Counted from the first letter of the stretch, positions 2,569-42,498 are shown. The stretch: DNA of 64,000 nucleotides from Candidatus Heimdallarchaeum aukensis (GCA_021513695.1 CP084166.1:2496001-2560000), one strand, 5' to 3'. The notes: generated by a model from the letters alone, not told the origin. Translations and numbers: made by a program.

Positions 2569-3108
2569 GTGTCATACGATTTACTATATATTTCATTAAT
2601 GGGCTCATCAGAAAAAGCTGTAGCAAATTCAATATATGCTTCTTTAAAGAATTTAGTTAAAACTGATAAGAAAAATTGGGTTCTGGTGTTTGCAAAATCT
2701 AAATCAACACCAATAAATGGAGAAAGAATTGTTGAAATATTAGATGAGTATAAAAACACTTATACTAAAGCTAAATGGTACAACGCTCCTGTTGATTTTG
2801 ATGAGTTTGAAATTGAAGAATCCAACCTTCTTAAATCAATGGAACAGATAATAAATTATGTGGAAGAAACAGAAAAGAACTACTCTGACATCTTTATAGA
2901 TATAACACCAGGTAGAAAAGTAATGTCTGTTGCAGCCACTCTAGCCGCAATAAATCTCTGTAAATCATCAGAGTTCAATGATATCAAAATAATATACTAT
3001 TTGTTGAAAAATGTTGATGAACATAAAGATAAAGACGCACCTGAACTATATCCTGATGAGTACAAAGTGTCGAGTTGGTCTGTTAAAGATATAAGTAAAA
3101 GAATTTAG
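2569..3108 (+). CDS. small stand-alone CARF-like domain protein (possible cyclic-oligonucleotide sensor or ring-nuclease-like)
   Basis: N-terminal strand followed by polar residues ('LLYISLMGSSEKA'). 'DITPGRK' fits the CARF beta4 signature [DN]x[ST]xxx[RK] and resembles the DxTHG motif of Csx1-type proteins. At 179 aa it is a single-domain protein. GTG start. Confidence 0.45.
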   Translation: MSYDLLYISLMGSSEKAVANSIYASLKNLVKTDKKNWVLVFAKSKSTPINGERIVEILDEYKNTYTKAKWYNAPVDFDEFEIEESNLLKSMEQIINYVEETEKNYSDIFIDITPGRKVMSVAATLAAINLCKSSEFNDIKIIYYLLKNVDEHKDKDAPELYPDEYKVSSWSVKDISKRI

Positions 3109-3118
3109 AGGAAAAAGA

Positions 3119-4219
3119 ATGTCTGAAAAGCCAGTAATTTTGGAGTTTAGTGAGTTTTTTGAGAGTTATTTGTCAGAAAAACCTTTCATTATTCGAGGTT
3201 GGGATGAAGATGAGAATCAAGAATTTAGAATTGAATATAATGAAGGTATTACAACATTTGATAAAAATTTAAAACCCTTAGATATAAAGAATTATCTCTT
3301 TAATATTGGTATCTTCCCTTCTGATGAAAAATGGTGGAGAGAAAAAGCATTTAAAAAATTGGAAAAACGATATAATGAAGCAATTGAAGAAGAAGAGGTT
3401 CCTGCTCTGGGTTTAGATACAAATATAATAATAAATGGCGTTTTTATCAACAGGTTAAGAGGATTATTAAAAAGGAAACTTAAATGGGAAAATCCTCTCC
3501 TTCTACTGTCTCTTGCTTCATCTCACGAGCTTCACTATGGAGCAGAATCAAAATATAATGACTCGTTTTATAACAAATCAAAATTGGACAATATATGGGA
3601 ATTTATTTTATCACTAGATTCTCAAACACAGGAACTAGCTAAGACTGTTTTTGGCACCTATAAACCTATAGAAAACAAAAACATTTTGAGTTCTTTACAT
3701 TGTAAAAGAGGAAGAATAGGGCTTATAGGTTCATATAACTATTATAAACATAAGAAACTACCAAATACTCTCATCATAAAATCGATTCATCCTTATAATG
3801 TTGCAAAGTTTGATTCAGATGGGCATAAATATAAAGGAATTGATGCAATTTACGACACTTTAATTGCTTATGAGTTCACTCAGTTTATGACCTTTACAAA
3901 TACAAAAGTAACGATTTTAACAATGGATAATTCTTTAGCAAGTTTATTACAAAATGCATCAGTGGATGTAGTTTATATACCACCTCCAAGTAAATTTCAA
4001 TTACCAAAAGAAATAATTATCCCTCAAAGAAATTGTTCTATCCTTCTGAGAGAACTATTAGTAAGATCTCCTTTTATCGTTATTGAGGATGAAAATAAAA
4101 AAATAGTATTATCAATGATTTGGATAGGACAAACAGATGAAGAAAAAGCAAAAGGAGTAATTCATGGAGTAGTGAAAGAAAAAAATAAAACTAGATATTT
4201 ATTAATAAAGAGCCAATAA
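3119..4219 (+). CDS. PIN-like nuclease domain protein with uncharacterised ~95-aa N-terminal region
   Basis: 'ALGLDTNIIINGVF' is a typical first PIN acidic motif. Later candidate acidic positions are 'HYGAESKY', 'IDAIYDTLIAYE' and 'ILTMDNSLASLL' (T-x-D type last motif). GAGG lies upstream of the ATG. Confidence 0.45.
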   Translation: MSEKPVILEFSEFFESYLSEKPFIIRGWDEDENQEFRIEYNEGITTFDKNLKPLDIKNYLFNIGIFPSDEKWWREKAFKKLEKRYNEAIEEEEVPALGLDTNIIINGVFINRLRGLLKRKLKWENPLLLLSLASSHELHYGAESKYNDSFYNKSKLDNIWEFILSLDSQTQELAKTVFGTYKPIENKNILSSLHCKRGRIGLIGSYNYYKHKKLPNTLIIKSIHPYNVAKFDSDGHKYKGIDAIYDTLIAYEFTQFMTFTNTKVTILTMDNSLASLLQNASVDVVYIPPPSKFQLPKEIIIPQRNCSILLRELLVRSPFIVIEDENKKIVLSMIWIGQTDEEKAKGVIHGVVKEKNKTRYLLIKSQ

Positions 4220-4305: not shown

Positions 4306-5127
4306 GTGAAAAACACTTTTACTGTTATGGAAAATTGCTCTCTTTCTTCTAAAGATATGATTAAATTATACCTAGAAGTTGAAAAGGTTGCACGGTTTTA
4401 TGGAAAAATAAGACTTGTAGTCAATGATAAATTAAAGGCTGATCTTAAGGGAGAAGAGAAGACGAATTGTGGGCAGTTTCCTGCAAATAGTAAAAAGTTC
4501 CAAAAGTATTGGGGACTATTTAAAGAATTAAATATGAATACAAAGAAAATAAACAAATCCTATAAAACAATTAGTATTCCTAAAGAAGAATATAATAATT
4601 TAAAGAATAACAATAATAAATTAAAATATCAACGTTTTAATGTTCTTCGAGACTATTTTGCAATAAAAAGAATTCAAACTCTTCCACCAGAAAAAAAAGA
4701 ACAAATAATAATTACACTAGGATATAGAGATATCTTGCCACCAAACGTAGAAATGAAAACTTCAAATGAAAACCTAATCAAAATAATTGAAAATACAGAA
4801 GATTATTTAATTTATTTTAATTTGGAATCAGAGTTTGCGTTTCGTATGATATTTAGACATTTTTTGTGTTCGTTTTTGTTTAATGAACTTAACCTTTTTC
4901 CTGATAAAGAGATTCATATTTTAAAAAGAAATAGTTTGAAAAGCAAAAATAAGAATAATAAAGCTATTTCTAATCGTCTAATTATTTATAAGAGTGACAA
5001 GAAAAACTTTGAACTTATTTCAGAAACTACTTATCAAAACTTATTGAAACTTGTGGATGATACACAACTACACCAAAAACTTATGAAAATTCATTTAGAT
5101 TTTGAAAGAAATAAAGAAGGAATATAG
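4306..5127 (+). CDS. hypothetical Lys/Asn-rich protein (start uncertain: GTG 4306 or ATG 4327)
   Basis: Long ORF with no competing ORF on the other strand. No motif recognised. Confidence 0.4.
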   Translation: MKNTFTVMENCSLSSKDMIKLYLEVEKVARFYGKIRLVVNDKLKADLKGEEKTNCGQFPANSKKFQKYWGLFKELNMNTKKINKSYKTISIPKEEYNNLKNNNNKLKYQRFNVLRDYFAIKRIQTLPPEKKEQIIITLGYRDILPPNVEMKTSNENLIKIIENTEDYLIYFNLESEFAFRMIFRHFLCSFLFNELNLFPDKEIHILKRNSLKSKNKNNKAISNRLIIYKSDKKNFELISETTYQNLLKLVDDTQLHQKLMKIHLDFERNKEGI

Positions 5128-5172: not shown

Positions 5173-5949
5173 TTAATAATCATTAATGCAAATATCTTTG
5201 ATTTTAAAATTCTCTTTGCCTTCTTTAATTGGATACAAAAACCACCAACGCTTTGACAGCTCTTTTTCAGATATATTCTCTATGAGATTCGAAATAAAGT
5301 AAGAAAATGACAAGTTCTCTATTTTGTAGATAGAATACACATCATTAAGTTTGTCTTGCATTTCTCTTTCTAGCCATAATTTAATAAATAGATTTTCACC
5401 CATGCAAATATGATTTACAAACCCTTGACTATTTTTTAATGCTGCAATAATGTGTCCTTGAATTAATCCTTCATTTAAACTATTAGATCCACTATAAGCG
5501 AAAATTCCATTAAACTTGCTTTTTCCAATTATTTTTCCATTAAAAGACGCATTATCCATAATTTCTTTAATGTTGCTATTGTTTACTTTTGTTTTGACTT
5601 CAATGATACCTTTAACATTATCTGGTGTTGTAATTACAAAATCTCCTTCTACAAATAACGCTGGATATGTATTATCGTATAGAATTATATCTATTTGTTT
5701 TGATATTTCAGTTCCGAAATTCTCACAATTATGTTTATAATTAATTATGAATCCTGTTCCTATGCTTATGTTAGAAGGCAAAAAACGTTTAATAACATTT
5801 TTTAATATAGCTTCCTTAAATCTTCCTTCTTCTCCCCAGTGTCTATTTCCTATAAGATTTCTTACTCTATTTTGAACAATTTTCAACTCTCTTGTAATAG
5901 AACTATGAAATTCTTTAGGGTTTATATCCCATCTATTCCTCTGATTCAT
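5173..5949 (-). CDS. PD-(D/E)xK-type nuclease-like protein (resembles DUF6602 family)
   Basis: 'SKQIDIILYD...' followed ~30 aa later by 'VKGIIEVKTK' gives a D...E-x-K arrangement. Family assignment is from memory of the consensus, not a search. Confidence 0.5.
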   Translation of the reverse strand: MNQRNRWDINPKEFHSSITRELKIVQNRVRNLIGNRHWGEEGRFKEAILKNVIKRFLPSNISIGTGFIINYKHNCENFGTEISKQIDIILYDNTYPALFVEGDFVITTPDNVKGIIEVKTKVNNSNIKEIMDNASFNGKIIGKSKFNGIFAYSGSNSLNEGLIQGHIIAALKNSQGFVNHICMGENLFIKLWLEREMQDKLNDVYSIYKIENLSFSYFISNLIENISEKELSKRWWFLYPIKEGKENFKIKDICINDY

Positions 5950-6346: not shown

Positions 6347-7109
6347 GGTAGTGTCTAGTTTTTTTCCGACAAAAATATTTGTGGGGACTCTAATAGTAAG
6401 ATATGAAAACACAAAAACTATCTGCTCTTTTTAAGAGATGCAGAGTCCCCAAAAAAATAATAATAAAAGCTATTTATGAATATATTGGTTCAAAGAATGG
6501 TTTGAGGACAGTAGCATGGAAGAATGGTTTAACGCATCAAACATTATTGTATTGGGTAAAGAAGTTCAGGCTCTTTAGGGAAAGTTTACATAGAGTTGTA
6601 GCAGAGAGAGGGGGAATACCAGAGATTATAGTAGTAGATGAAACAGAGATTAGGACCTCTCAAGGCTCAATATATCTGTGGTTCGCGTTAGATCCTTACA
6701 ACAAGACTTTACTGGGTTTTAGTATTACTAAAGGACGGAGTAATCTTGAATGTTTACTAACTTTCCGTTATTGGCTCAAATGTTGGGGTTTTAAGCCTCG
6801 TATTGTCGTTACAGATGCAGGGGTATGGTATCCTGTCTTACTTCGTCTAGGTATCAAAATCTCCGTTATCAAAGGTGGTTTACGCTCCTATATTGAACGT
6901 TTTAATGCTACTCTTAAGAGTTATCGTTGGTTTCATTCTATTCTCCACTGCACTTGTCCTATCCGTGCCGTCTATGGCTCTACTCATCTTTCTGGTTTTC
7001 TTACTCTCTTTATGCTCCATTATAATTTCGTTCGTCCTCATCAGAGCTTGGGACATCCTCCCCTTAGTTCCTTTTTACCTAGGAGGTGGTATAAAAACTA
7101 GACACTACC
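6347..7109 (+). mobile_element. IS6-like insertion sequence, copy A (763 bp), with its own flanking direct repeat
   Basis: Terminal inverted repeats: GGTAGTGTCTAGTTTTT (6347-6363) and its reverse complement (7093-7109). A 9-bp direct repeat ATATAAAGC abuts each end (6338-6346 and 7110-7118). Single DDE ORF inside. Confidence 0.85.
6403..7101 (+). CDS. DDE transposase (IS6-like; family tentative)
   Basis: Candidate D-D-E: 'VVDETEI', 'VVTDAGVWY', 'YIERFNATLK' (K at E+7). C-terminal 'YNFVRPHQSLG' is integrase-core-like. About 93% identical to the copy at 14619-15317. Confidence 0.85.
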   Translation: MKTQKLSALFKRCRVPKKIIIKAIYEYIGSKNGLRTVAWKNGLTHQTLLYWVKKFRLFRESLHRVVAERGGIPEIIVVDETEIRTSQGSIYLWFALDPYNKTLLGFSITKGRSNLECLLTFRYWLKCWGFKPRIVVTDAGVWYPVLLRLGIKISVIKGGLRSYIERFNATLKSYRWFHSILHCTCPIRAVYGSTHLSGFLTLFMLHYNFVRPHQSLGHPPLSSFLPRRWYKN

Positions 7110-7408: not shown

Positions 7409-9922
7409 TTATTTATCTCTATTTATGAAATTCATTAAAACCTTTAAGCAAGAATATTCTTCTAATTTACCAATATAAACATTCTTGAATTCACCATTGA
7501 TTTTTTCTCTTAAAATTAAATGTTTCTGTTTATTTATTATCAGGCGCCCACCAGTTGGTTTAAATTTTCTAAAAATAAACCACAAACTTTGAGCTTCTGG
7601 AAAAGTAATTTTTTCTGCTAATTCTTTTGGTTTGTTCAATAATAATTTTCCATTTGATTTAAAACTCAGAGTAATTATTGCTTTAGTATCTCCTAGGTAA
7701 AAATCTCCAATCTCTAGTTTTTGCAAATCTTCTTCTTCAATTTCCTCTTTTTTCTTATATTCCTTTTCTAGCGGCTTTTCTGATATAAACTCTCCAAATT
7801 CTGACCACAAACGATATTCAATATTGCTTTCACCAATCACCTCATTCCAATTTAATTTATAGAATATTTTTTCATCTGTTGTGTTTTTTACATAAATATT
7901 GAACAATGTTGTGTGAGTTTTTCCTTTTGCTTTTCGGAGTATTCTTCCCAAGGATTGAATTCTTTGTATTTTTGAAGACGATGATGCCATTATAATTCCT
8001 ATATTTGTTGAAGGGATATCTACTCCTTCAATTAGTGCCTTAGCTGATAATAGAACTCTGGTTATTCCTCTTCTATACAAAGTTAAACCAATCCTATTAA
8101 GTGATGAAGGAAATCCTGAATGATAAATGCTTACATAGGGAGAATCTAATTCAACAAAAACTCTATTTATCTCCCCTATAAGTTCATGAAATAAAATAAC
8201 TCTATCGTTTCTTGAAATTGTATATAAAGGACTAGTTTCATCGCTATATTCTTGAATATTTTTTGAAATCACTCTATTTAATATTTTTAATGTGAGTTTT
8301 TTTCTATTTTCTGACTGATATACTAAGTCCTTCCTTTCCTTTATTTTTTTGAAGTATTGGTTAATAAGTGGATCTTTTTTTTCTTTACTCATTTTCTGTA
8401 GAACGGGATAAATATTTATCATGTCAAGTGATAGTTGAGGATATTTGTAATTTAATGCATCAATAATTTTACTTATTTCTTTAGTTAAATTTTCATATTT
8501 TCTTTTTTCATGATTTGTAAGGACTACTCCATAGTTGTAAATATTGTATTTTGGTATTATTCCATCATCAAATGCATTTTTGTAAGTATAATTTCCTATT
8601 ATTTCTCCTAATTCTCGAATAATAACTTCATTAAAAGCATCATCCGATTCTCTTTCTGGTGTAGCTGATAGTCCTAAAGTGTAAGATCTCTTAGCTTTAT
8701 ATATCTCACGAAACTTCGGGGCGCCAGATTTGTGACACTCATCTACAATTAAAAGATTTGCTTGTAATTTTTCTGTAACTTTTCCTATTAGATTGTTTTC
8801 TATTGCAGAATTAATGACAAAAATGAAAATTTCTTTTTGATCAAAACTGTCTGAATAATCACCACCTTTTAATGCAATTTTTGACGGTTCAACGTGTAGT
8901 TTTTCTATAAGATTATCATACCATTGTTCTAGAAGTACTATTGTTGGGACAACTATAGTAACTGTCAAATTTGGTTCAATTTTCTTCATTTCTTGAATAA
9001 TTGCCATGGCTAAGTGTGTTTTCCCAGCTCCAGTAACTACTTTAGCAATACCTCTTTTCTGTTTCATCCATCGTTCAAGGAATTTTGATTGCCATGAATA
9101 AAGAGAATCTTGCAATTGCCATTCTAGTCCTTTAGTTTTTTTTATCTCTTTTTTCATGTCAATAATTGGGTTTTTCATGAATTCATCAAAATCGTTTTGA
9201 TGTTTAAGTATTTGATATCTCCACTTTCGATTAGGGAGATGGGCTTTAATTGTTAAGTGATATAGTTTTCTCAATTCTCTTATTGGTACATCTCTTCTAT
9301 TTAGTTTCTGTAATCGAGTAAGTAATTCTTTACTTAAATTGTGGGCGTAGGATAAAATTTCTTTTCTATCTCTCTCTCCTAAACTAATAGTTCCTTGATA
9401 GTAGTGGATCACTCCACATAAATCTAATACTTTCAAAATTTCTGACAAATATCTTCTGATTGTGTCTACATTCTCAATTTCATAATCATTTGCTTTAAGT
9501 AAGGTAATAAACTTAGAAAGTTTCAATCCTGAATTGTTTTTGCAAACGATATCATAAACATCTGGTAAAAAGTAAGCCCATTCTAAATTTCGACAAAGGC
9601 ATTTTAAAATATAGTTTTTATATTTAATTTTTCCGTCTAAATATTGGACAGAAAGATCAGAGAGAAAATAAAATTCATCTAAATATAGCATTTTATATGT
9701 AACTAAGCTGCCCAAATATCTTTTTGCCGTAGTGACTTTTATCTTTCCTTCTAATGTGTTACATAGTAGTAGCTTTGCTTCTTCTTCTGTAACTTTTTTA
9801 TCACGCAATTGCTTTAGAAAATTCTTCATTTTTTCTTCTGACTCAAGAATTGGATAAATTAGAGTCATATGGGGAACTTTCTTTTTTGTATCAATCAAAC
9901 CATCTGTCATAATTATCATCAA
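7409..9922 (-). CDS. SF2 (DEAD/DEAH, ResIII/XPB-like) helicase with ~270-aa unknown N-terminal region and a C-terminal copy of the module shared with the two upstream genes
   Basis: Motif I 'VVTGAGKTHLA', II 'LIVDECHKSG', III 'LGLSATPE', VI 'IQSLGRILRKAKGK'. The C-terminal 102 aa (nt 7412-7717) carry 'IGDFY...FKPTGGRLIINK...VYIGKL'. Start is ambiguous (several Met within the first 19 codons). Confidence 0.85.
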   Translation of the reverse strand: MMIIMTDGLIDTKKKVPHMTLIYPILESEEKMKNFLKQLRDKKVTEEEAKLLLCNTLEGKIKVTTAKRYLGSLVTYKMLYLDEFYFLSDLSVQYLDGKIKYKNYILKCLCRNLEWAYFLPDVYDIVCKNNSGLKLSKFITLLKANDYEIENVDTIRRYLSEILKVLDLCGVIHYYQGTISLGERDRKEILSYAHNLSKELLTRLQKLNRRDVPIRELRKLYHLTIKAHLPNRKWRYQILKHQNDFDEFMKNPIIDMKKEIKKTKGLEWQLQDSLYSWQSKFLERWMKQKRGIAKVVTGAGKTHLAMAIIQEMKKIEPNLTVTIVVPTIVLLEQWYDNLIEKLHVEPSKIALKGGDYSDSFDQKEIFIFVINSAIENNLIGKVTEKLQANLLIVDECHKSGAPKFREIYKAKRSYTLGLSATPERESDDAFNEVIIRELGEIIGNYTYKNAFDDGIIPKYNIYNYGVVLTNHEKRKYENLTKEISKIIDALNYKYPQLSLDMINIYPVLQKMSKEKKDPLINQYFKKIKERKDLVYQSENRKKLTLKILNRVISKNIQEYSDETSPLYTISRNDRVILFHELIGEINRVFVELDSPYVSIYHSGFPSSLNRIGLTLYRRGITRVLLSAKALIEGVDIPSTNIGIIMASSSSKIQRIQSLGRILRKAKGKTHTTLFNIYVKNTTDEKIFYKLNWNEVIGESNIEYRLWSEFGEFISEKPLEKEYKKKEEIEEEDLQKLEIGDFYLGDTKAIITLSFKSNGKLLLNKPKELAEKITFPEAQSLWFIFRKFKPTGGRLIINKQKHLILREKINGEFKNVYIGKLEEYSCLKVLMNFINRDK

Positions 9923-10712
9923 TTGAGTAGATTATTTTGGGCTCTCTTGGTCTGTCAATTTGTATTTGATGCTCATATTTTCCCAGATAGATAGGATACC
10001 AACTTATTTCTTTATCTTTGTTTCGACGATCTTTTTGAGGTTTTGTATACTCATTTAACAAATTTTTTTGGAGATTAGAAAAATCACGCCATTGTTGATC
10101 AATTATATCGCTTTTTAATACATCTTTTTTTATTAGATACTTCATTCTATCTTGAGTAATGGCTGTCCACATGTGCCCATATTCATTTATCCAAATAGAA
10201 CCTGCATTAAGCCAATTATATGAATTCTGCATTCTTCCTCTTAATTGGCATATCCTTTTCAGAAAACTGTTATTAAAATTTTGTACATAATAAGTTATTG
10301 AAGTACTTTTTGTATTACTTTGAATTTTTTCTAGAAAATAAATTCGTCCTTCTCTAGAAAATTTATACTTTGAACCGTGCTTTCTTAAAAATCCTGTCCA
10401 TAAAGAGCCAATTTCTAGATTTCTGGGGTTAATCTCAATATCTTCAAAAACTAACTCCTTATTTAATTGTCCAACATAAACTGGCAACCATTCATTCTTC
10501 TTTTTTCTAATATAAGTAATAATCTCTCTTTCTTCATTAATTATTATTCGACCACTATTCTCCTTTCTGACATCAATTATGTCTTCTATAATCTTTGAGA
10601 CGTCAGTGGTTGTTGGAATTTTTATATCTCTATCTTTGTAGTAAATGCCATCAATATTATAAACATATTTTGACCCTCGAACATGCTTGTCATAAATATC
10701 TCCTTTTTTCAT
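9891..10712 (-). CDS. hypothetical protein made of two copies of the shared module
   Basis: Copy 1: 'KKGDIY..GSKYVYNIDG..ENSGRIIINEEREIIT..PVYVGQL'. Copy 2: 'IGSLW..GSKYKFSREG..AGSIWINEYGHMWT..YPIYLGKY'. ATGA overlap with the upstream gene at 10709-10712. Confidence 0.6.
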   Translation of the reverse strand: MKKGDIYDKHVRGSKYVYNIDGIYYKDRDIKIPTTTDVSKIIEDIIDVRKENSGRIIINEEREIITYIRKKKNEWLPVYVGQLNKELVFEDIEINPRNLEIGSLWTGFLRKHGSKYKFSREGRIYFLEKIQSNTKSTSITYYVQNFNNSFLKRICQLRGRMQNSYNWLNAGSIWINEYGHMWTAITQDRMKYLIKKDVLKSDIIDQQWRDFSNLQKNLLNEYTKPQKDRRNKDKEISWYPIYLGKYEHQIQIDRPREPKIIYSIDDNYDRWFD

Positions 10713-12403
10713 TTTAATACACCAATTCTCGATAAAAATTCATTATCATCTTCTTCTGACCATTCTTTCTCTAAATCATAAGGAGGTTTGAATTTTATAT
10801 TTCCTGAAAATTTACCTAAATAAATTGGAATCATTCCGTCTCTATCGGTTTTTTTCCTAATATCAATCAAATTTTTTTCAAAATTTGATAACTTTGATAT
10901 TTGGTTTAATATTCTTCTAGGATAAGGAGCAGAGTACATTAATGTCAATATTGCTCCATTCTCGTTTATTTTTATTCTTCCACCTTGTGGTTTAAATTGT
11001 AAAACTGTTTCCACTATCTTTTCATGCCCTTCAACAGCATAAAATTTCCTGCCAGATACTTTTATGAATAATTGTCGATTAGCATTAATTCCAAAAGTGG
11101 TTCCATCATATATACTTGGCCATAAATCTCCTTTTTTTAACTTTAAAGGTTTCCAGGAAATTTTATTTTCTTTGAAAATTATTTCTCCAGTTAACATTGT
11201 AACAAATATCTGTTTGTATTCGCCATTTACTTCTTTTTTAGTGATTATTTCTCCGCTTTCAGTGATACGAAAACTACCACCTAGTGGTCTACAATTAAGA
11301 AGTTTGTTTTTTACTCTATTATCAGAAAATTCTATCTCAAGTTTTGTGTCTGTACCACTCAAAGACCACCAAAAACGACCATCAGAATTAAAATGATATT
11401 TAGTTCCACGATAGATACTGTGGTAGGTTTCATTCTCTTTGGAGTCCAAAGGAGCTAACCAAAAATCAGAGCGATAAAGATATTGATCATGAGATTTTGT
11501 GGTGTTTATTTCTTCTCGTTTTTTTAATAGTTCTTTCCAGTTTTCTTGCAAAGATATTTTGCCGTCTTTTACTGTATTCACTAGTTTAAGTTCTTTTAAT
11601 GTTTCTAGCAATCTTAATCCGTTTTCTTCACCAATTAAAATCAAAATTTCATTTAATTTTAACTCCAGTTTATTATTGAATAAGAGCAAAATTAATTTTT
11701 CTAGTTCATATGGTGATGGATCAATAAGATCAATTTCATTGATTATATTTTGTAAAGTAAATTTGTTATCATCTTTTAAATTATCTATTTCAAATAGTTC
11801 ATCAATACTGTACTCAACTACGCCAAATTTTTCAATAATTAAAGATAGCTCTGATTGTTTAAAAACAAATTCATTTGATGAAGTATTAGATAAAAATTGA
11901 GTGAGATTAATTTCATTTAGAACATTAAACCATAGATGTTTATCTCTTTCAATTTGATTGGTATCGTAAGAACTATCTCCTTTAAAACAAACAATAGAAC
12001 TAATATGCCTAACTGGTTGTTGTATAAAGCGGGCTGAAATAGATTTTAATACTTCATTAATGTAGTTCATTAATTCATATCTCTGTGATCTAACTTGCCT
12101 GAAAATGTTTTTTCCTCCATTAATAGGCAATTTTTTATTTTGGTCAGTTACAACATACCATTCACTGTTTTCGGATCCAATTACTTTTCCTTCATAATTT
12201 TTGACTTCAACACTAATAATAGCTTTATCTTTGAGGATAATTAAGTCATACTGGTGTTTTCCAATAATATAATCTAAAATTATGTGAATTGTTTGCTTAC
12301 TATTTTGAAATTCATCATAGATATTTTTTAATATCTTAGTAATTTGTTTTTTTTCATTTTCTTCAAAATCTAAAAAACCTGAATAATATGCCTTCACAGT
12401 CAT
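10709..12403 (-). CDS. NERD-domain protein with central helical/wHTH-like region and two C-terminal copies of the shared module
   Basis: NERD-like 'YDLIILKDKAIISVEVKNYEGKVIGSENSEWYV...NIFRQVRSQRYEL' (aa ~50-112). Module copies at aa ~308-412 ('GTKYHFNSDG..RPLGGSFRITESGEIIT') and ~413-540 ('KKGDLW..KPQGGRIKINENGAILT..IPIYLGKF'). Confidence 0.7.
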   Translation of the reverse strand: MTVKAYYSGFLDFEENEKKQITKILKNIYDEFQNSKQTIHIILDYIIGKHQYDLIILKDKAIISVEVKNYEGKVIGSENSEWYVVTDQNKKLPINGGKNIFRQVRSQRYELMNYINEVLKSISARFIQQPVRHISSIVCFKGDSSYDTNQIERDKHLWFNVLNEINLTQFLSNTSSNEFVFKQSELSLIIEKFGVVEYSIDELFEIDNLKDDNKFTLQNIINEIDLIDPSPYELEKLILLLFNNKLELKLNEILILIGEENGLRLLETLKELKLVNTVKDGKISLQENWKELLKKREEINTTKSHDQYLYRSDFWLAPLDSKENETYHSIYRGTKYHFNSDGRFWWSLSGTDTKLEIEFSDNRVKNKLLNCRPLGGSFRITESGEIITKKEVNGEYKQIFVTMLTGEIIFKENKISWKPLKLKKGDLWPSIYDGTTFGINANRQLFIKVSGRKFYAVEGHEKIVETVLQFKPQGGRIKINENGAILTLMYSAPYPRRILNQISKLSNFEKNLIDIRKKTDRDGMIPIYLGKFSGNIKFKPPYDLEKEWSEEDDNEFLSRIGVLK

Positions 12404-12561
12404 AATTTTTCCTCATTATGATAAATTAAGACAACTTAAAAATATTATATCTGAATTTCTTAAAAGCTTTGCTTTAAAAATGCAAAAAATTGCTATTTAT
12501 GTAGATCAAATAAAATTAATTTTTTAATAATGACGAAATTCTGTAAAAAAATAAGTTTATC

Positions 12562-12611
12562 CTCTCTTTAAATGATAAAATTAAATAATTCCTTTTGTTA
12601 TTTAAAGAGAG
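12562..12611. promoter_or_regulatory. 12-bp perfect inverted repeat (CTCTCTTTAAAT / ATTTAAAGAGAG) with 26-nt spacer in the divergent NERD-operon / HNH intergenic region
   Basis: Arms at 12562-12573 and 12600-12611, read directly. One such repeat could occur by chance in an AT-rich 64-kb window. Confidence 0.2.
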
Positions 12612-12800
12612 ATTCAATTTAGTTTAAAAAAGGAATCCTAGAATTGATGTTTTACTGATAAAAGCACTTCCTTAATTCCAAGTTATATTATTTTAAACAA
12701 ATTTAATATAGATAATAATTAAAAAAGAATCTTGTGAGTTCGATATATTTATTCCTTCTTGATGACATTATTTTTATAATCTCTATTTAAATCATGAATT

Positions 12801-13994
12801 ATGGATGTTCTTCTTGCAATAGAATCTGTTCTTTTTGATGAGAAGAAAACTAGTACATACAAATTTGCTTTGGTAACTGCAATTATTGATTATGTCATAG
12901 AAAATCCAAACGAGTTTCCAGAAAACGGTTTTCACTATATACCAATTATTTATCTAGCAAAAAGGTGGTTATATTATTATTATCCATTGATGGTTTATGG
13001 GGAGAGAGGAGTTAGACAAGGATCAACACAGATATCTTTGCATCGATTTATTAGAGAATTTGTTGAAAAGCAAAGGGATAAGTCAATAAATTATTTTGAA
13101 CCTGAAGCAATTCTTAAAATTAAAGAAAGAATAGAAGATAATGAAATATTGGATAAGGAACTGATTTCTTTACTAATAAAGATAAGAAGAGTTATAATAA
13201 GCCAACCTTTACAATTCATTAAAATTGCCAGTAATAGTTTTATTCAAGAAGAGTTAGTAGAAGGAATAAAATTTAAAGATGAAACCTTTTCTCTCTTTGG
13301 ACTATATAACAGTTTACTAAAATATAATGAAAAAGAAAACTATCAAAGTATTAGATCGAAATCAACTAATTGGGAAGGAGAAAGAGGAGAACAAACTTGG
13401 TTGGAATTGGAAGCTGAAGAGACATTATTTATACAAATGGGACATTATACTTACAAAGAATTAGCAGAATCAAGATTTTTTATAAAAGATGCAATAATAA
13501 AAAGATGGTTAGAATATTCAGTAGAAAAGTATCTGCAAGCAGATGCTAAAGCAATTTATGCATTATTTTACGGACTAAAACTACATGAAAAAAGACTGGA
13601 AAGAGAATCAGGAAAAATACAGAAGATGAGAAAAATAGCCTTAACAGTTTTTAAACCGATGAAATGTATTTACTGTGGAAAAGAAATAAGAAAATTTGAA
13701 CTAGATCACCTAATACCTTGGTCAAAGTTTCCAGTTGATAGATTCTGGAATCTCTTTCCAGCATGCGAAAGTTGCAATAGAAAAAAATCAGATAAGATCA
13801 TAAGTATAGAAAGAAATATTCAAAGTAAAATAGCTGAATATTTAAAAGCGTGGCTGGAATATTTTATAGAAAATAAGGAAGAATTGGCAGTCCTAGGAGG
13901 AAAAGAAACTCACAATCTAAATATGGAAAATATAGAATCTTCAATTCATCTGTTATTAGAACAAATAAAAGAAATAAATCAGAATTTAATTTAG
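12801..13994 (+). CDS. HNH endonuclease with ~290-aa uncharacterised N-terminal region
   Basis: C-terminal 'CIYCGKEIRKFELDHLIPWSKFPVDRFWNLFPACESCNRKKSDK' has the CxxC...DH...N...CxxCN pattern. The N-terminus ('TSTYKFALVTAIIDYV') is unassigned. Confidence 0.85.
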   Translation: MDVLLAIESVLFDEKKTSTYKFALVTAIIDYVIENPNEFPENGFHYIPIIYLAKRWLYYYYPLMVYGERGVRQGSTQISLHRFIREFVEKQRDKSINYFEPEAILKIKERIEDNEILDKELISLLIKIRRVIISQPLQFIKIASNSFIQEELVEGIKFKDETFSLFGLYNSLLKYNEKENYQSIRSKSTNWEGERGEQTWLELEAEETLFIQMGHYTYKELAESRFFIKDAIIKRWLEYSVEKYLQADAKAIYALFYGLKLHEKRLERESGKIQKMRKIALTVFKPMKCIYCGKEIRKFELDHLIPWSKFPVDRFWNLFPACESCNRKKSDKIISIERNIQSKIAEYLKAWLEYFIENKEELAVLGGKETHNLNMENIESSIHLLLEQIKEINQNLI

Positions 13995-14610: not shown

Positions 14611-15372
14611 GGTAGTGTCTAGTTTTTATACCACCTCCTAGGCAAAAAGGAACTAAGGGGAGGATGTCCCAAGCTCTGATGAGGACGAACGAAATTATAA
14701 TAGAGCATAAAGAGTGTAAGGAAACCAGAAAGATGGGTAGAGCCATAGACGGCACGGATAGAACATGTGCAGTGGAGAATAGAATGAAACCAACGATAGC
14801 TCTTAAGGGTAGCATTAAAACGTTCAATATAGGAGCGTAAACCACCTTTGATAACGGAGATTTTAATACCGAGACGACGTAATACAGGATACCATACCCC
14901 TGCATCTGTAACGACAATACGAGGCTTAGAACCCCAACATTTGAACCAATAACGAAAAGTTAGTAAACATTCAAGATTACTCCGTCCTTTAGTAATACTA
15001 AAACCCAGTAAAGTCTTGTTGTAAGGATCTAACGCGAACCACATGTACATTGAGCCTTGAGAGGTCTTAATCTCTGTTTCATCAACTACTATAATCTCTG
15101 GTATTCCCCCTCTCTCTGCTACAACTCTATGTAAACTTTCCCTAAAGAGCCTGAATTTCTTTACCCAATACCATAGTGCCTGGTGTGTTAAACCATTCTT
15201 CCATGCTACTGTCCTCAAACCATTCTTTGAACCGATATATTCATAAATAGCTCTTATGATTATTTTCTTGGGGATTCTGCTCCCTTTAAAAAGGGAGTAT
15301 ATTCTTAGTTTGTTCATATTTTCACATTAGAATCCCCAATAATATTTTTGTCGGGAGAAACTAGACACCACC
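14611..15372 (-). mobile_element. IS6-like insertion sequence, copy B (762 bp), inverted relative to copy A, with its own flanking direct repeat
   Basis: IRs: GGTAGTGTCTAGTTTTT at 14611-14627, and ...AAACTAGACACCACC ending at 15372 (one mismatch). A 10-bp direct repeat ATAGAAAACC sits at 14601-14610 and 15373-15382. Confidence 0.85.
14619..15317 (-). CDS. DDE transposase (IS6-like), copy B
   Basis: 232 aa, collinear with the 6403-7101 product. Differences cluster in the first 13 aa, with scattered substitutions elsewhere. Confidence 0.85.
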   Translation of the reverse strand: MNKLRIYSLFKGSRIPKKIIIRAIYEYIGSKNGLRTVAWKNGLTHQALWYWVKKFRLFRESLHRVVAERGGIPEIIVVDETEIKTSQGSMYMWFALDPYNKTLLGFSITKGRSNLECLLTFRYWFKCWGSKPRIVVTDAGVWYPVLRRLGIKISVIKGGLRSYIERFNATLKSYRWFHSILHCTCSIRAVYGSTHLSGFLTLFMLYYNFVRPHQSLGHPPLSSFLPRRWYKN

Positions 15373-16317: not shown

Positions 16318-17919
16318 TTATTTCTCAAGTTCTTCTTTTATAGATGGAGTTACCCCCCCATGTTTCATTCTACGTTTCTTAATATTAACTAAAAGTGTAA
16401 AAGGAACAGATAATCCTGTAACCATAGCTTCACCAGTAGCTAGCCCTTTAATTGCTTCGAAATCTTCTTTTGTCATATGTTCTGCAATGTTTTGTACATA
16501 ATTTTGGTCTTTTGGATTCATCATTCTTAGTATAAAATGGGTGTTACATTGGCTTAAAATGTCTGCATCAACTTTAGAAGGTCTTTGTGATACAATACAC
16601 AATCCCATACCAAATTTTCTTCCTTCAGAAGCAACTCTTGCAATTATCTGTTTAGAAGCAGAAGGGCTTGTTCCTGGAGGAATGAAATTATGTGCTTCTT
16701 CAATAATTGTTAAAAATGGCTTTATTTTTGATTCATAACTTGTTTTCCTCAAATCAAAGAGTTTTCTTAGAATTAATCCTACTAAAGCTTGTTGATCAAA
16801 AGCTTCAATTCCTCCTAAGTCTAATATTGATATTTGCCCTTTCTTTACAAATTCTGAAACATCAGTTCCTTTTCCAAAAGTAAAATATGGTCTTTTCAAT
16901 AGTGCTCTCATTTTATTTTCAAGTGCTCTTCTTGTTCCTTTGTGTTCTATTCTTTCTATTGACTTTTCTATTAATTCCTCAATGCTGGTTGGAGGATTTC
17001 CATCAAGTGCTTCCATATGTATTTCATCCCAACCTCGATCTAATGATGCACTCTGAGCCTCTGAAATACCATAGTACTGTGAAAGTAAAGTCTTGATTTG
17101 CCATGTCTCTAACTCTGCTGGATGAAACTTAACACTAATTGTTACTCTTTTTCTTCCATGAACATCTTCAAACTTCTTTTCAAGTAAATAATTAAATTCT
17201 CCAGGAACAAATGTTAGTACTGACTTTGAGATTTCACGTGCTTCTCTTGAATCTTCATTAGGAATAAGTGTTGAAGAATATTCGCTATGAGGATCAATAA
17301 GAATGATGGGTAGTTTGAGATTATCTATTAAATATAATTCTTCGAGAATAACACCAACAGTATAACTTTTTCCTGCTCCTGTCATTGCTAAAACTGAAAA
17401 ATGATGTGTTACAAGTTTTTCATAATCTATATATGCTGGAACATTATGATTATCTCTCAAATTACCAATAATAATTGTTCTATCCTTAATGAAAAAAGAA
17501 GAAACAAATTCATCATCGGCCATATAAATAATTGTACCAGGATTAAGAGGGATTCGAGGTCTGACAAAGGCATTTCCTATTTTTCTTCCAATTATTAAAA
17601 CTGAAAATCCCATCATTCCAGCAATTTCAGAAGCTAATCCTAAATGTTCAATAGTCATAGAACTTGCCTCTAAGTCTTTTGTTCTAAGTTTTGGCATCAT
17701 ATTTTCATCTAATAGTAATCTGTTTTTTGTCCAAACAGATATAACTCTCCCTAGTAAAAATTCTTGTTTTTTATTTTCATCTAGATATTGTATTTTTACT
17801 AGTCTACCAATACCAATACTTGGCGAGTCTTTCAGAGCAATTGCTTCTACCAAGTATGGTGTTGTTTTTCCATAAACTATTCCAACAGGTATGTTTTTTT
17901 TCTCTCTATTTTGTTCCAT
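16318..17919 (-). CDS. herA: HerA-type (DUF87/FtsK-HerA superfamily) ATPase
   Basis: Walker A 'LAMTGAGKSYT', Walker B 'LTIIEEAHNFIP', 'GMGLCIVSQRPSKVD'. The N-terminal barrel-like region is 'PVGIVYGKTTPYLVEAIA'. Lies 9 nt downstream of the nurA-like gene. Confidence 0.85.
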   Translation of the reverse strand: MEQNREKKNIPVGIVYGKTTPYLVEAIALKDSPSIGIGRLVKIQYLDENKKQEFLLGRVISVWTKNRLLLDENMMPKLRTKDLEASSMTIEHLGLASEIAGMMGFSVLIIGRKIGNAFVRPRIPLNPGTIIYMADDEFVSSFFIKDRTIIIGNLRDNHNVPAYIDYEKLVTHHFSVLAMTGAGKSYTVGVILEELYLIDNLKLPIILIDPHSEYSSTLIPNEDSREAREISKSVLTFVPGEFNYLLEKKFEDVHGRKRVTISVKFHPAELETWQIKTLLSQYYGISEAQSASLDRGWDEIHMEALDGNPPTSIEELIEKSIERIEHKGTRRALENKMRALLKRPYFTFGKGTDVSEFVKKGQISILDLGGIEAFDQQALVGLILRKLFDLRKTSYESKIKPFLTIIEEAHNFIPPGTSPSASKQIIARVASEGRKFGMGLCIVSQRPSKVDADILSQCNTHFILRMMNPKDQNYVQNIAEHMTKEDFEAIKGLATGEAMVTGLSVPFTLLVNIKKRRMKHGGVTPSIKEELEK

Positions 17920-17928
17920 TTTCCTTCC

Positions 17929-19053
17929 TCAATGTAGTAATTTTCTCATTTTTGAATTAATCAAATCTCTGGCAATATCTGGTGCAATATCTCGTATCTC
18001 ATAAATTAGTTGGGTAAAGACTTTGGATGAAAATGATTTTGTTACTCTTGTAAGTTCGTCTACAAAAACTAAAGGATAAGGATATCCAACAACAGGTGAA
18101 ATCCGACATAAGTCATTAAATAATTCAAATAGTGAGTCCAATTTGGATAAATCCCATTTTGGAAATTCTAGATATAGTGCATGAGATGAATTAGGATACA
18201 AATAATAGGTACTACAAACACCTTCTCTTTTTAAGATTGAAATTGGGATTTCACCATGGGTGATACCAGCGACTGAAACATCTAAAGGTTCAAAATAAGC
18301 TGGTTTATCAGGCGAATATTTTCGTATTATATGTTGTAAAGCTATTCTTTCTCTCCAAGATTCATTTTCAATTAAATTTCGAAGAATTTCTAACTTTTCT
18401 TTATTAATATTTAATTTATCCATTACTTCCTTATCACACTTTAAAGCTCTTAGATATTTAGCTCTTCTCGCATCTTTTGATACTGCAATTACACTCACTT
18501 TACTCTTTTTTAAAGCTAAATTAAAAAAATCATTAGCATTTTTTTGATACTTTAGGAAAGCATCTGACAATTCTCTTATGTTAGTAACATTTACAGAAGT
18601 ATCAGGAAATGTGATAGCTCCATCAAGTAAAACAAGAGTTGGAATATCATCATCTATTTCATTAATTGCTTTTTTTGCAACATAATATTCTAAAGACTTC
18701 ATGAAAGTGGATGAAACTATTGAAGCTATATCTGAAGCTGGAGTATCAAAAAGTTGAATATCATTAAAATCAGTAATTTTTGCCTTTCCAAGTGTAATCA
18801 TAAAGGCTCGAGCAGAAGCAACAGCAAATCCCACTCCTTCTAAAGATGTATGATCCATCCCCCCATCAACGGCTATAACTCTCCAATTTTCATCTGAAAA
18901 TGATTTATATTTTGGAATATTTATGATAAGATCTTTTAAAATTTTGAAGTTATTGGCCTGTCTTCTAACTTTTGCAACAAGTTTTGGTACTTCTATTCTT
19001 CTATATCTATCAATTTCTTTCATAATAAGATTGAAATTATCCATTATCTTCAC
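17929..19053 (-). CDS. nurA: NurA-like nuclease
   Basis: 'WRVIAVDGGMDHT', 'LVLLDGAITFPD', 'VIAVSKDARR' and 'VGYPYPLVFVDELTRV' match conserved NurA blocks. Adjacency to herA supports the call. Confidence 0.72.
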   Translation of the reverse strand: MKIMDNFNLIMKEIDRYRRIEVPKLVAKVRRQANNFKILKDLIINIPKYKSFSDENWRVIAVDGGMDHTSLEGVGFAVASARAFMITLGKAKITDFNDIQLFDTPASDIASIVSSTFMKSLEYYVAKKAINEIDDDIPTLVLLDGAITFPDTSVNVTNIRELSDAFLKYQKNANDFFNLALKKSKVSVIAVSKDARRAKYLRALKCDKEVMDKLNINKEKLEILRNLIENESWRERIALQHIIRKYSPDKPAYFEPLDVSVAGITHGEIPISILKREGVCSTYYLYPNSSHALYLEFPKWDLSKLDSLFELFNDLCRISPVVGYPYPLVFVDELTRVTKSFSSKVFTQLIYEIRDIAPDIARDLINSKMRKLLH

Positions 19054-19783: not shown

Positions 19784-22700
19784 CTATGTAGAAATTGTTT
19801 TAATAATTAGTTTTCTATTAATTAGATCTTCTATACAATTATCTACTTTATTTTTACCAAACTTTTCGTACAATTTTTCTAACTCTATTGCTCTCTTTGG
19901 TCCCTCTTTTCCTATCTCAAAGGCTATATCTTTATATTTAGTGAAATGTTCTTCTAAAAATTTATCTGTTACTTGTTTAAGATTGTACAAATCGTCAATA
20001 ACATTAAAAGATATTTCACGTTTTGAATCAACTTTATTAAGTAAACTAGGGATTTCATTAATACTTTTTACATCTTGATTTGATAGGATTAGATCTATAT
20101 TTCGTTCCTTTATCCAATTAAAAAAATTTGAAATTTGATTTAGAATTTTTTGTACATTGCGAAGCAGTATAGTTTGAATATCCTTATAAAAAGTTTCAAT
20201 TTCAGCACAAATTCGTGCAAACCAATCTAAGTATTTGTTAGCAAAAAACGGATCCTCTGGTAGTTCTGCTTTTAAGACATCATTTTCTAATTCTCTAAAC
20301 TCTCTCTCACCAATTTTATCTATGATTGATGAAATTTCAGTACTATTCTCAAAAACATAATCCCATTTTTTAATATCAACCAATTTTAGATTTTTTAAAG
20401 TGCTTAAGTATTTGTTAATAATTTCTGTTTGTTTTTCTAGTTTGGAATACAATGAAGATATTTGACTTTTAGCTTCAATGTGCTTGTTAAGTTCCTTCTT
20501 TATATTCTCAATTTTTACAATAGCTTTGTTTATTTCATTAATTTTCTTTATTGAATTTAATACACTAATGATTTTTTGAACAATATTATTAATTTTCGGA
20601 TCTGATTTTTTACTATGTTTATTACATTCTGCACTTATCTGTTTTAACAAAATTCTTAAGCTTTCTAGCTCACTTGTCACTTTTGAATAATCTTCTTCAT
20701 ATGCTTCAACTACTTCTGAAAAATCCCTCAATTTTTCATGTAATTTGCTTCTTTCATTGTAAATTTCAACTAATAATTCTCCTGTAATGTCAATAAAGTT
20801 TTTAGGTACTATTTCTTCAATATCTTTAGCATTTTTCTCAATTTCAGAAAGTTCATTTTCTAAATTCTTCAACTCTTGTAAAGTTTCAATTTCTAAATTG
20901 ATTGTGTGAGTATTTTCAGAAAAATCGACTCTAATAGTTTCTAACTCTGTAAACTTCTCAACTAAATTTAAATATTGTTTGGTTACCTCGTTAAGGTAAG
21001 TTCTATCCAATTTAGGATTGTAAAAATCAAATTTAAATTTCTTTTTTGCCTTTGGTGCTTGATCTATTAGAATACCTTTTACTGTTAGGAGTCTGAGGAT
21101 CTCTATTTCTTCTAAAATTGAACATGAAAGAGCATATCGTCTTCTTAATCTTATTCTTGCCAATTCAGGATCAATAGAATGAGCAAAAACAGAAAACAGT
21201 TCTATTATATCACGTTCTATTAAACTTAATTTTTGTACTTTATTGAACTTGAAAAGGCTACCAAAGCGTTCAAGTTTAGTTTTTAATTCGTTTATTTTTT
21301 GGTTGTTGGGTTCTTCTGAAACAATTTCTTCCCATAATTCATAATAAGTATCTAGTAGATCGTTAAAATCTCTTTTTTGGAAAATTCTATTGTCAAGAGG
21401 TATTCTATCCATTTTGTCAAATTCAGTTCTTATTTCCTTTTGAGTGTTGGTAAGCCAAGTAATGAAATTGTTTTTTATATCATCATGATTTTTCTCTTGA
21501 TGTGTTTCTTTTGGATATAAAATGTGAATTAGATCTTTTTTAGGAATTCCATACACTTTAATTAAAGGACTGTCTCTAGGTTTTAAATCCACTATTCCAG
21601 TTAATTCTTGTGATAGTTTTTCATGTTTGATTATTTCGTCTGTTTCTTCAGGCACCAAAAATGTAATTGCTTCAAAAAGTTCTGAACTTTTTACACATAA
21701 CTTTAGGTAGGTTTTAAGAATATCTTTTATATCCTTCTCTATTGATGGCTTAGCAAGCATGATTGCATTTTTTGGAGAGTCAATTGCACATACCAAATCG
21801 TTAATATTCTTATCTTTAGTTCCTAAAACGGAAATATAATGCATTTTTAGTATTTCTTTTAGATTTTTTGAGAATTTAACTGATATTTTTCTAGAAGATT
21901 CATTATCAAATTGCTGTAATGCTTTTCTCTCACCACTTATTTCTATACCTCTTATCTGTTTTTCTTTAATTTCATTTTTCCATCTTTGTTCAGAAATAAG
22001 TATATATGATTTTGCTTTGTTTTCAAACAATTCTCTTAATTCTTCATTTAACGTTTTCAGATTTTTTTTCTTAACTGCAATATAAGTGTTATATTCGCTA
22101 ACTGGAACTGTAGTAGGATCGTAATTATTCTTTACTAAATCATTATCAATATATGTTGCATACTTTTTAATAAGTCTGATATTTCTGTATTGACTGTCTT
22201 TTTCGCTGTATTCGATGTCTTTAACTATTTCTTCGTAATTTTCTATATTATCTTCATAATTAATAATTAATAAATCATCAACAAGACCTGAATCGATTAA
22301 CCGGTTTTTAAAGAATTCTACCAAATTTTGATCGATGTAATTTTTAAGTTCAGCATCAGAAATTGCAGAGTGGTCAAAATAAATTCGAAAAAGTAATTTG
22401 TAGATTGTTTCTTCATTAATGTTTATTTCTTTTGCAAACTTTCTTGCTACCTCAATTAACGAGGAATTAATCTTTCTTAACGCATTTTCAAAATTCTCAT
22501 TATTTAATCCTAAGATTTCAGGTTTTTTTATTATCTCTTCAAAATGTTCTAAGGTGAATTGAATTATTATTTCTTCTTTTCTTTCTAAGGTTTTTTTTGC
22601 TAAATACACCACTAGTCTATCCATCAATTTTATTAACATTCTTGTATTAACATAGGTATATTCATGTACTAAGGCAGAAAGCTTAGCTAAAGCTAAAGCA

Positions 22701-41659: not shown

Positions 41660-42479
41660 TTATATGAACACAAAAGAAGAGCAATTTTTCAAACAATTAA
41701 AGGATATATTTTGTGGAGCTAGAGTTGAAGGTGATTCTGGTTTTATAAACTTAATGAGAATTAAATCTAGTTACTTTAATGCTCTATTTAACGAATTAAA
41801 AAAGGAAATTAATATTAAAATTGCAAATGAACCTTCTTTTAAAGAAGAGCTCTTTGATAAACTCTACACCTTCTTTAAAACTTATTTTTCAGATACTGGT
41901 AGTGTTTATTTTAACTATACTCCTTTAAAATCCAAAGTATATGAAAAAGTTTATACCAACAATGAAGACACAATGCTTTTTTGGAAAACTCATATGCTTC
42001 ATTATGTTAAAACAGCAAGAATATGGAATAATTTGAAAATAAGTTTAGAAATAAATAACAAAGATTACATCTTTTTATTTGATATATCTGATCTCAACAA
42101 ACAAGATTCTGCTGAAAAAAATGATGTTATTTATATTTTAGATAGCATCACTGATAACATTGTGAAGTTTAATGTTGTTTACTCAAAAAGAGGGAAAACT
42201 ACGAAATTAACAGAAATTGTAAAAAAACTATATAAAAACAACATTCCTATTGGAGTAGATCAATTATCTGGCCTTTTTATGATATTTGAAAAACAGAATG
42301 AGGTTGATTATTTCATTAATAAAAACGCCAACATGTTTCTAAAGGAACAGTTTAATATGTGGCTCAAACAATATGTTCTAGATGTAGATAGTATTTTTAA
42401 TAGACGGCGATTAAATCAATTGAAAATATTGCATGATATAGCTTATAAAATTATAGATTTCACAGGAAATAGAATATAG
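41649..42479 (+). pseudogene. truncated mod copy (N-terminal 271 aa + 5 junction-encoded codons) created by the duplication
   Basis: Identical to the 43013-45574 product up to 'YKIIDF', then 'TGNRI*' read from res-derived sequence. Confidence 0.8.
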
Positions 42480-42498
42480 AAATATACTCTTTAAACAC

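Follow-up and report, generated by a model that had tools for sequence, protein, structure and literature searches.

In the Pbe system, the helicase PbeA is fused to an HKD nuclease and partners a CxC ABC ATPase, PbeC, and a DndE-like protein, PbeD (PMC10853773). We analysed a stretch of 64,000 nucleotides from Candidatus Heimdallarchaeum aukensis (GCA_021513695.1 CP084166.1:2496001-2560000), referred to below as the window, in which an operon of three overlapping minus-strand open reading frames (ORFs) encodes a NERD nuclease protein of 564 amino acids (aa), a 273-aa protein and an 837-aa helicase. We found that five segments distributed over these three proteins are copies of one previously unclassified domain of about 100 residues, here called the module, and that the module marks a conserved three-gene helicase system present at more than 70 bacterial and metagenomic loci. 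The triad consists of a DExH-type superfamily 2 (SF2) helicase and two paralogous proteins with tandem modules, and the helicase itself carries two modules in bacteria and one in the window lineage.

Like Pbe, the window operon pairs a helicase with a DNA nuclease, and the motor core of its helicase finds its closest match in the defence libraries in PbeA (PADLOC, 8.5e-62 over residues 237-682). However, no PLDc/HKD match was found on the 837-aa helicase, the operon has no CxC ABC ATPase or DndE-like gene and neither is a conserved neighbour in related loci, and no PADLOC model, Pbe included, matches the two-module proteins. The lack of the HKD-helicase fusion, of the ATPase and of DndE excludes the locus from PbeABCD. 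NCBIfam returned only sub-threshold helicase families, namely XPB and Hef (4.9e-16 and 1.1e-16) and TIGR04095, the Dnd-system restriction enzyme, which was rejected as an assignment at 165 bits (3e-48) against a curated cut-off of 600.

Hachiman also places an SF2 helicase beside a PD-(D/E)xK-type nuclease in defence islands, and HamB matched the window helicase weakly (1.3e-7, residues 257-400). Because this match covers only the N-terminal motor lobe and no operon protein matched the library's HamA (DUF1837) models at the 0.1 threshold, the locus was not classed as Hachiman, which has two genes rather than three, whereas the nuclease is optional across the module family. To our knowledge, no repeated module has been reported for Hachiman. 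In the archaeal XPB-Bax1 pair a ResIII/Rad25-like helicase is likewise encoded beside the nuclease to which it binds, and weak XPB matches were found in the window; yet XPB scored 58 bits against a cut-off of 610, no Bax1-like protein appeared in the scans made, the distribution of the triad is accessory rather than core, and the module has no PDB sequence match. Lastly, the first ~200-210 residues of the NERD protein match PADLOC PDC-M16A (5.6e-22), but the match covers positions 1-204 of a ~900-residue model and leaves the module-bearing half uncovered. The defence-system models tried detect nothing of the triad beyond the helicase core, and we found no publication or library model describing the module or the triad, including under PDC-M16, NERD with SF2 helicase defence, novel-fold heterotrimer helicases and MIT_C with helicase.

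The operon and its parts, all on the minus strand, are as follows.

10709-12403, minus: gene 1, 564-aa protein with a NERD nuclease domain, a winged-helix-like middle and two modules (ORF translation)
11984-12304, minus: NERD (PD-(D/E)xK-type) nuclease domain, residues 34-140 of gene 1 (Pfam PF08378)
11147-11488, minus: module N1, NERD protein residues 306-419, hidden Markov model (HMM) core 321-419 (hhalign, HMM)
10712-11146, minus: module N2, NERD protein residues 420-564, containing a helical insert and ending in a conserved acidic tail (hhalign, HMM, 23-copy alignment)
9891-10712, minus: gene 2, 273-aa protein made of two module copies only (ORF translation, BLASTP, AlphaFold2 [AF2])
10419-10712, minus: module M1, residues 1-98 of gene 2 (hhalign 93-98% to the other copies; single-module AF2 model)
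9894-10418, minus: module M2, residues 99-273 of gene 2 (hhalign, alignment, AF2)
7409-9922, minus: gene 3, 837-aa SF2 helicase with one C-terminal module (Pfam, PADLOC, motifs)
9173-9922, minus: helicase N-terminal extension, residues 1-250 (no Pfam match; alignment)
7862-9106, minus: helicase motor core, residues 273-687 (Pfam ResIII 273-424, Helicase_C 568-664, ERCC3_RAD25_C 567-687)
7412-7726, minus: module H, helicase residues 733-837, the most divergent copy (hhalign)

That five module copies are spread over the three proteins, between 7412 and 11482, had been proposed in an earlier note made by reading the translations; the span given is bounded by the end of the helicase copy on one side and the start of the first NERD copy on the other, and all strings quoted there are present in the translations. 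We compared position-specific alignments of N1, N2, M1, M2 and H, together with control segments from the same proteins, all cut from five homologous operons, using hhalign. Nine of the 10 module pairs were matched with 93-99% probability (E 3e-7 to 5e-18), the weakest pair being M2-H (30%, E 6e-4), whereas all 26 comparisons involving controls gave 2.3% or less. Although identity among the copies is just 15-27%, the recurring pattern seen by eye stays in register across an alignment of 23 copies, where it reads L-x-x-G-D-x-[WY], then [YH]-R-G-[ST]-x-[YF]-x-[FV]-[ND], a helix ending in K, G-G-[RS]-[FI]-x-I-[NT]-E-x-G-x-[IV]-x-T and P-[IV]-Y-[LIV]-G. The proposed length of about 100 aa holds for N1, M1 and H, but not for the second copies N2 and M2, which reach 145-175 aa through a helical insert between strands 5 and 6.

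The copies differ in how readily they are detected. N1 was matched at 96-99% to N2, M1, M2 and H and with an independent E-value (i-E) of 7e-28 by the module HMM, and was still recovered at 7e-6 by a model trained without it; N2 gave 96-99% by hhalign and an HMM i-E of 1e-34. In the case of H, hhalign gave 97% to N1, 96% to N2, 93% to M1 and the weak value to M2 mentioned above, BLASTP aligned the helicase C-terminus to N1 and M1 at about 1e-3, and a broad 70-row profile built without helicase rows found it at 7e-5. An HMM from N1 and M1 alone found H weakly (13.7 bits), and one from N1, N2, M1 and M2 missed it because the insert of N2 and M2 was turned into match columns. H is orthologous to the first C-terminal module of bacterial helicases (97.9% between the two). 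A separate 105-aa protein record (P0021), from a 4554-bp metagenome contig, corresponds in sequence to the window helicase module, starting at about residue 734 and reaching the C-terminus; a split gene or an artefact of gene calling may account for it.

The module was also unassigned in every library that we searched, as the note had supposed. No match over any module region of the three window proteins was found in Pfam, PADLOC or NCBIfam, the 273-aa protein as a whole had no family match in these or in PHROGs, and PHROGs gave no match to the module. Ten distant family members had no curated-family match over their modules, and the database names of seven members were absent or "hypothetical protein". 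When 73 module copies were compared with Pfam at E<=1, the most widely shared family was hit by only five of them (E>=0.039), and no consistent family emerged. The module profile found no PDB sequence at E<=10, and a structure search against BFVD gave nothing at E <= 1e-3.

The predicted structure of the 273-aa protein, based on a 22-sequence alignment, is confident (predicted local distance difference test, pLDDT, 90; predicted template modelling score, pTM, 0.88), and the single-module model of M1 from 73 copies reached a pLDDT of 94.2. The predicted topology is three strands, a helix and three strands; in M2 a three-helix insert occupies residues 187-222, and residues 161-167 form a loop of low confidence. 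As the two-module model is rigid, packing of one module against the next is at least predicted within one chain. Since neither sequence nor structure searches returned a counterpart, the module does not correspond to SH3, Tudor, KOW, OB or another solved fold; a clean match to a well-known domain of this kind was one of the outcomes that the note had named as refuting its proposal. No significant structural match to the sliding-clamp fold (PCNA, beta-clamp, 9-1-1) was obtained; PCNA and beta-clamp domains recur below threshold in all three structure searches, which we treat as a lead and not as a result. Unmatched in the family libraries searched and with no significant match among solved structures, the module represents a new domain family, and its confident predicted structure and clear motifs make it ready for curation.

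The remaining parts of the three proteins are of known type, with the exception of the helicase N-terminus. The NERD domain scored 42.2 bits against the PF08378 cut-off of 22.1 (E 1.3e-10), and its catalytic-type motif QYD...(E/D)xK, here QYDLIIL...SVEVK, is kept in all five aligned homologues; the architecture of NERD plus two modules recurs in homologous loci. The helicase exceeded the Pfam cut-offs for ResIII (2.7e-25), DEAD (2.3e-14) and Helicase_C (8.2e-8), and the motifs GAGKT, DECH, SAT and QxxGRxxR are intact in its translation. Its N-terminal extension, which looks by eye like two winged-helix units, is not found in the bacterial orthologues of ~740 aa, where the helicase core begins at about residue 45-80. 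In a single-sequence BLASTP comparison, residues 2-267 of the 273-aa protein align to residues 322-553 of the NERD protein (E 1e-12), gene 2 being paralogous to the C-terminal, module-bearing half of gene 1. The genes overlap by 4 nucleotides where the start of gene 2 meets the stop of gene 1, and by 20-30 nucleotides, as read at the junction, where gene 2 ends and the helicase probably begins (ATG at 9919 or 9910). Such overlaps fit a coupled translation of the subunits of a complex.

Only five close homologues of the 273-aa protein were found among 5.8 billion clustered proteins, and all five lie in the gene order NERD, two-module protein, helicase. A module HMM search of 1.84 billion representatives recovered 226 proteins at E <= 1e-3, 81 of them at E <= 1e-10. 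Almost every full-length member has exactly two modules, either alone (220-300 aa), with NERD (463-574 aa) or with TPR (403 aa); one member shows a weak, sub-threshold winged helix-turn-helix match ahead of its modules. The largest group, proteins of ~230 aa, was found at 43 loci in named bacterial genomes and metagenome-assembled genomes (MAGs) among 185,579 species genomes, from phyla that include Verrucomicrobiota, Planctomycetota, Lentisphaerota, Gammaproteobacteria, Acidobacteriota, Chloroflexota, Actinomycetota and Firmicutes.

A helicase of ~740 aa, homologous to that of the window (E 1e-80 to 1e-114), precedes the two-module gene in 37 of the 38 bacterial loci with enough upstream sequence to be informative, a count that takes in cut or fragmented copies. 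In most of these loci the first two-module gene (A) is followed by a second, paralogous one (B). The bacterial helicases themselves end in two modules (hhalign 98.7% and 95.1%), so that the canonical system is one of three proteins, each of two modules. A and B are paralogous over their whole length (A1-B1 and A2-B2 both 99%), and A2 is the module that matches all others best. A one-to-one orthology between the bacterial modules (A1, A2, B1, B2, H1, H2) and the window positions was sought and failed, except for H with bacterial H1, A1 with B1 and A2 with B2.

A further 24 metagenome loci carry two two-module genes followed by a helicase with one module, the same order as in the window, and occur in two forms. 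The form without NERD has helicases of 995-1081 aa and lies on contigs of ~50% G+C from soda-lake and hypersaline samples, while the NERD-fused form lies on contigs of about 30-35% G+C. Another arrangement, a one-module helicase followed by two two-module genes with or without TPR, was seen beside BREX genes and beside toxin-antitoxin genes. The suggestion that the module goes together with NERD or helicase genes thus stands firmly for the helicase, whereas NERD is one of several optional fusions. The system is compact and spread widely but sparsely over the PVC group, Proteobacteria, Acidobacteriota, Chloroflexota, Actinomycetota, Firmicutes and low-GC and hypersaline metagenomic lineages. 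Its cultured carriers, Thioalkalivibrio sp. HK1 and Mycobacterium sp. NS-7484, make experiments feasible.

Some loci depart from these layouts. The sole informative bacterial locus without an adjacent helicase or paralogue, in a Syntrophomonadaceae MAG (L049, 7938-8636), holds an apparent orphan copy. In an Actinomycetota MAG (L051, 6095-7278) the helicase gene that precedes the two-module gene is split into three short ORFs and may be a decaying copy. Two hypersaline contigs (L071, 6177-7073; L073, 6297-7193) have a third two-module gene ~3 kb upstream of the triad. In one NERD-type operon (L008, 13239-14048; L009, 5325-6134) a 269-aa ORF with no Pfam match lies directly 3' of the helicase and may be a fourth gene in that lineage.

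Effector domains are exchanged on the two-module proteins, which may carry an N-terminal NERD domain (window lineage), a PLD-like MIT_C domain, an AAA_21/AAA_15 ABC/OLD-type ATPase or TPR. The C-terminal MIT_C domain is found on the second two-module protein at four Verrucomicrobiota loci (E about 1e-38 in the two proteins scanned), and the motif LHDR...TDxGW is common to all four fusions, which lie at:

L047, 8559-9848: MIT_C-fused two-module protein
L050, 8604-9881: MIT_C-fused two-module protein
L045, 1640-2923: MIT_C-fused two-module protein
L048, 1614-2891: MIT_C-fused two-module protein

In a Planctomycetia MAG (L028, 8569-11088) the two modules are part of an 839-aa protein with an AAA_21/AAA_15/AAA_23 ABC/OLD-type ATPase; a stand-alone two-module gene lies ~1 kb downstream of this fusion (11995-12672).

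Defence genes were observed beside the window operon and several related loci. The immediate neighbours of bacterial triads are heterogeneous, and no fourth gene is conserved; among them are BrxC, PglZ, BrxL, PglX, a type I specificity subunit, a type IIG restriction-modification (RM) enzyme, mad5 and mad6 of MADS, PD-T4-6, WYL and AbiEii-like ATPases. Toxin-antitoxin genes are also among the neighbours at related loci, and two DpnI-like genes lie just upstream of the NERD-type operon with the 269-aa ORF. Pfam and PADLOC scans place the window operon within a densely packed defence-type island (its genes are listed further below).

Taken at about even probability, our preferred reading of these data is that the modules form an assembly platform tying effector adaptors to the helicase of a candidate defence system. 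The modules would join the three gene products into one helicase-centred complex, in which the two-module proteins would act as adaptors for interchangeable effector or sensor domains. The effector of the window system would be the NERD nuclease with its intact D...ExK motif, tethered through the modules; the DExH helicase would load onto DNA, presumably that of an invader, and move along it, while the nuclease held beside it would make the cut. What the data show is the homology of the copies, the conservation of the triad, the exchange of effectors and the setting in a defence island; that the modules physically hold the complex together, that DNA is its target and that it serves in defence is what we infer. 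The near-universal tandem pairs, the rigid two-module model, the exchange of effectors and the gene overlaps lean toward an assembly or adaptor role, and as the minimal bacterial A and B proteins consist of modules alone, the modules must supply the function of those proteins. The three-gene system is probably one of anti-virus defence, and is most likely a type of helicase-nuclease immune module built from a new component. The design is unusual, with the same domain on every subunit, mostly in pairs, and with nucleases or ATPases swapped onto it, and it offers a testable hypothesis on how a helicase-based immune complex may be assembled.

Several points weigh against this reading. The single module of the window helicase means that strict pairwise symmetry is not obligatory, and the best-conserved motif, K..GGxFxI[NT]ExG, might just as well serve to bind DNA or a ligand. 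The modules have a mildly basic character, the median pI being 8.7 in bacterial A proteins, 7.6 in B proteins and 8.4 in the C-termini of bacterial helicases, and the pI of N2, M2 and H of the window 9.6-9.8, although net charge and pI do not decide between DNA binding and assembly. Most bacterial systems have no recognisable nuclease, so that the adaptor idea is silent on what the core itself does. The defence role is drawn only from the neighbourhood, whose immediate members vary as described. Finally, there is no sign of carriage on viruses or plasmids, which is itself no test of defence: no relatives were found in IMG/VR viral contigs (two alignment-based scans) or PHROGs, and tblastn of two family members against PLSDB plasmids gave no match.

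The chief alternative, possible though in our view somewhat unlikely, is that the modules primarily bind nucleic acid, and that five or six copies on three subunits give a multivalent grip on DNA like that of RPA or a clamp, assembly being secondary; they might read a DNA end, lesion or modification. The basic character of the modules and their sub-threshold resemblance to clamps fit this explanation, as does the company they keep, since the helicase, NERD, the PLD-like domain and the OLD-type ATPase all act on DNA. In addition, winged-helix-like regions are present only in some lineages, so that the minimal system would need another DNA-binding element. On the other hand, net charges are small and vary, from -11 to +23 among A proteins, no conserved cluster of Arg or Lys is evident in three module alignments, and OB, SH3 and KOW-type DNA- or RNA-binding folds were excluded. 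DNA binding and assembly could also coexist. A more specific combination of the two, to which we give little weight, is that the module is a new fold of which six copies (five here) form a closed or pseudo-symmetric platform around DNA, clamp-like or RPA-like, that would load the DExH motor and present interchangeable nucleases. The comparison with RPA (six OB folds on three subunits) and with PCNA and 9-1-1 (3 x 2 domains) is one of analogy and not of relationship: one fold would be distributed over three subunits, each with one or two copies and five or six in total. If true, such a platform would be a previously unknown way of building a helicase-based immune complex.

We consider it improbable that the triad has no part in defence and is instead a machine of DNA repair, replication restart or mobile-element maintenance akin to XPB-Bax1. 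The helicase does bear the weak likeness to XPB/Rad25 and Hef described above (NCBIfam, and Pfam ERCC3_RAD25_C), and the window operon lies between two inverted insertion sequence (IS) copies. However, the system is patchy and rare (226 clusters among 1.84 billion; 43 loci among 185,579 species genomes), its neighbourhoods vary, its effectors are swapped and it often lies beside known defence genes, a pattern that fits accessory defence genes and not housekeeping repair.

More improbable still, in our estimate, is that the modules are sensor surfaces for a phage protein or small-molecule signal that switch on the helicase and nuclease. Repeats of beta-rich modules often serve as recognition scaffolds, the two-module proteins diverge quickly (20-25% identity between lineages), and in bacterial A and B proteins it is the first module that is strongly derived. 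Against a sensor speak the best-conserved positions, which are glycines, hydrophobics and one Asn, as is typical of a structural core and not of a binding pocket; the presence of the same module on the helicase would be hard to explain, and no viral homologues or mimics were found in BFVD, IMG/VR or PHROGs. That the similarity of the copies is mere compositional chance in an AT-rich, Lys/Ile/Asn-rich genome (26-31% G+C over the operon and its flanks, 1-22 kb) or reflects a known small beta fold (SH3, Tudor, KOW, OB) was rejected as highly improbable in spite of the low identity among copies, given the gap between modules and same-protein controls and the presence of the module, with the same motifs, in genomes of about 50-60% G+C.

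The other features of the island around the operon are as follows.

990-2522: PLD-like protein
5173-5949, minus: 258-aa DUF6602 protein (PADLOC CRISPR-associated PD-DExK 1e-23, NucC 1e-10)
6347-7109, plus, and 14611-15372, minus: inverted IS copies, 93% identical over 766 bp, each with a 232-aa rve/DDE transposase
12801-13994, plus: 397-aa HNH protein, with a C-terminal HNH at residues 289-332 and an unmatched N-terminal region of ~260 aa (weak PADLOC PDC-M01B, PtuB-like HNH)
16318-19053: HerA/NurA pair
27123-29267: GmrSD type IV restriction enzyme
30500-34222: UvrD-PD-(D/E)xK AddA-like helicase-nuclease
38666-45574: type III RM res helicase and mod DNA methylase

The DUF6602 protein may be a stand-alone effector nuclease, as judged from its library matches. 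The HNH gene is transcribed divergently from the operon and is not kept beside it in related loci; both the HNH gene and the three-gene operon lie in the 7.5-kb segment bracketed by the IS pair, a layout reminiscent of a composite transposon. No Rfam family matched the window. Two long ORFs of the island were without Pfam match, one of 1224 aa beside HerA/NurA (19784-23458, minus; none at E <= 1e-4) and one of 1151 aa after the AddA-like gene, within the block 30500-37667. Three consecutive ORFs on the plus strand, 2569-3108, 3119-4219 and 4306-5127, encode proteins of 179, 366 and 273 aa, and in the first of these the stretch DITPGRK presumably recalls CARF-type domains, a likeness noticed by eye.

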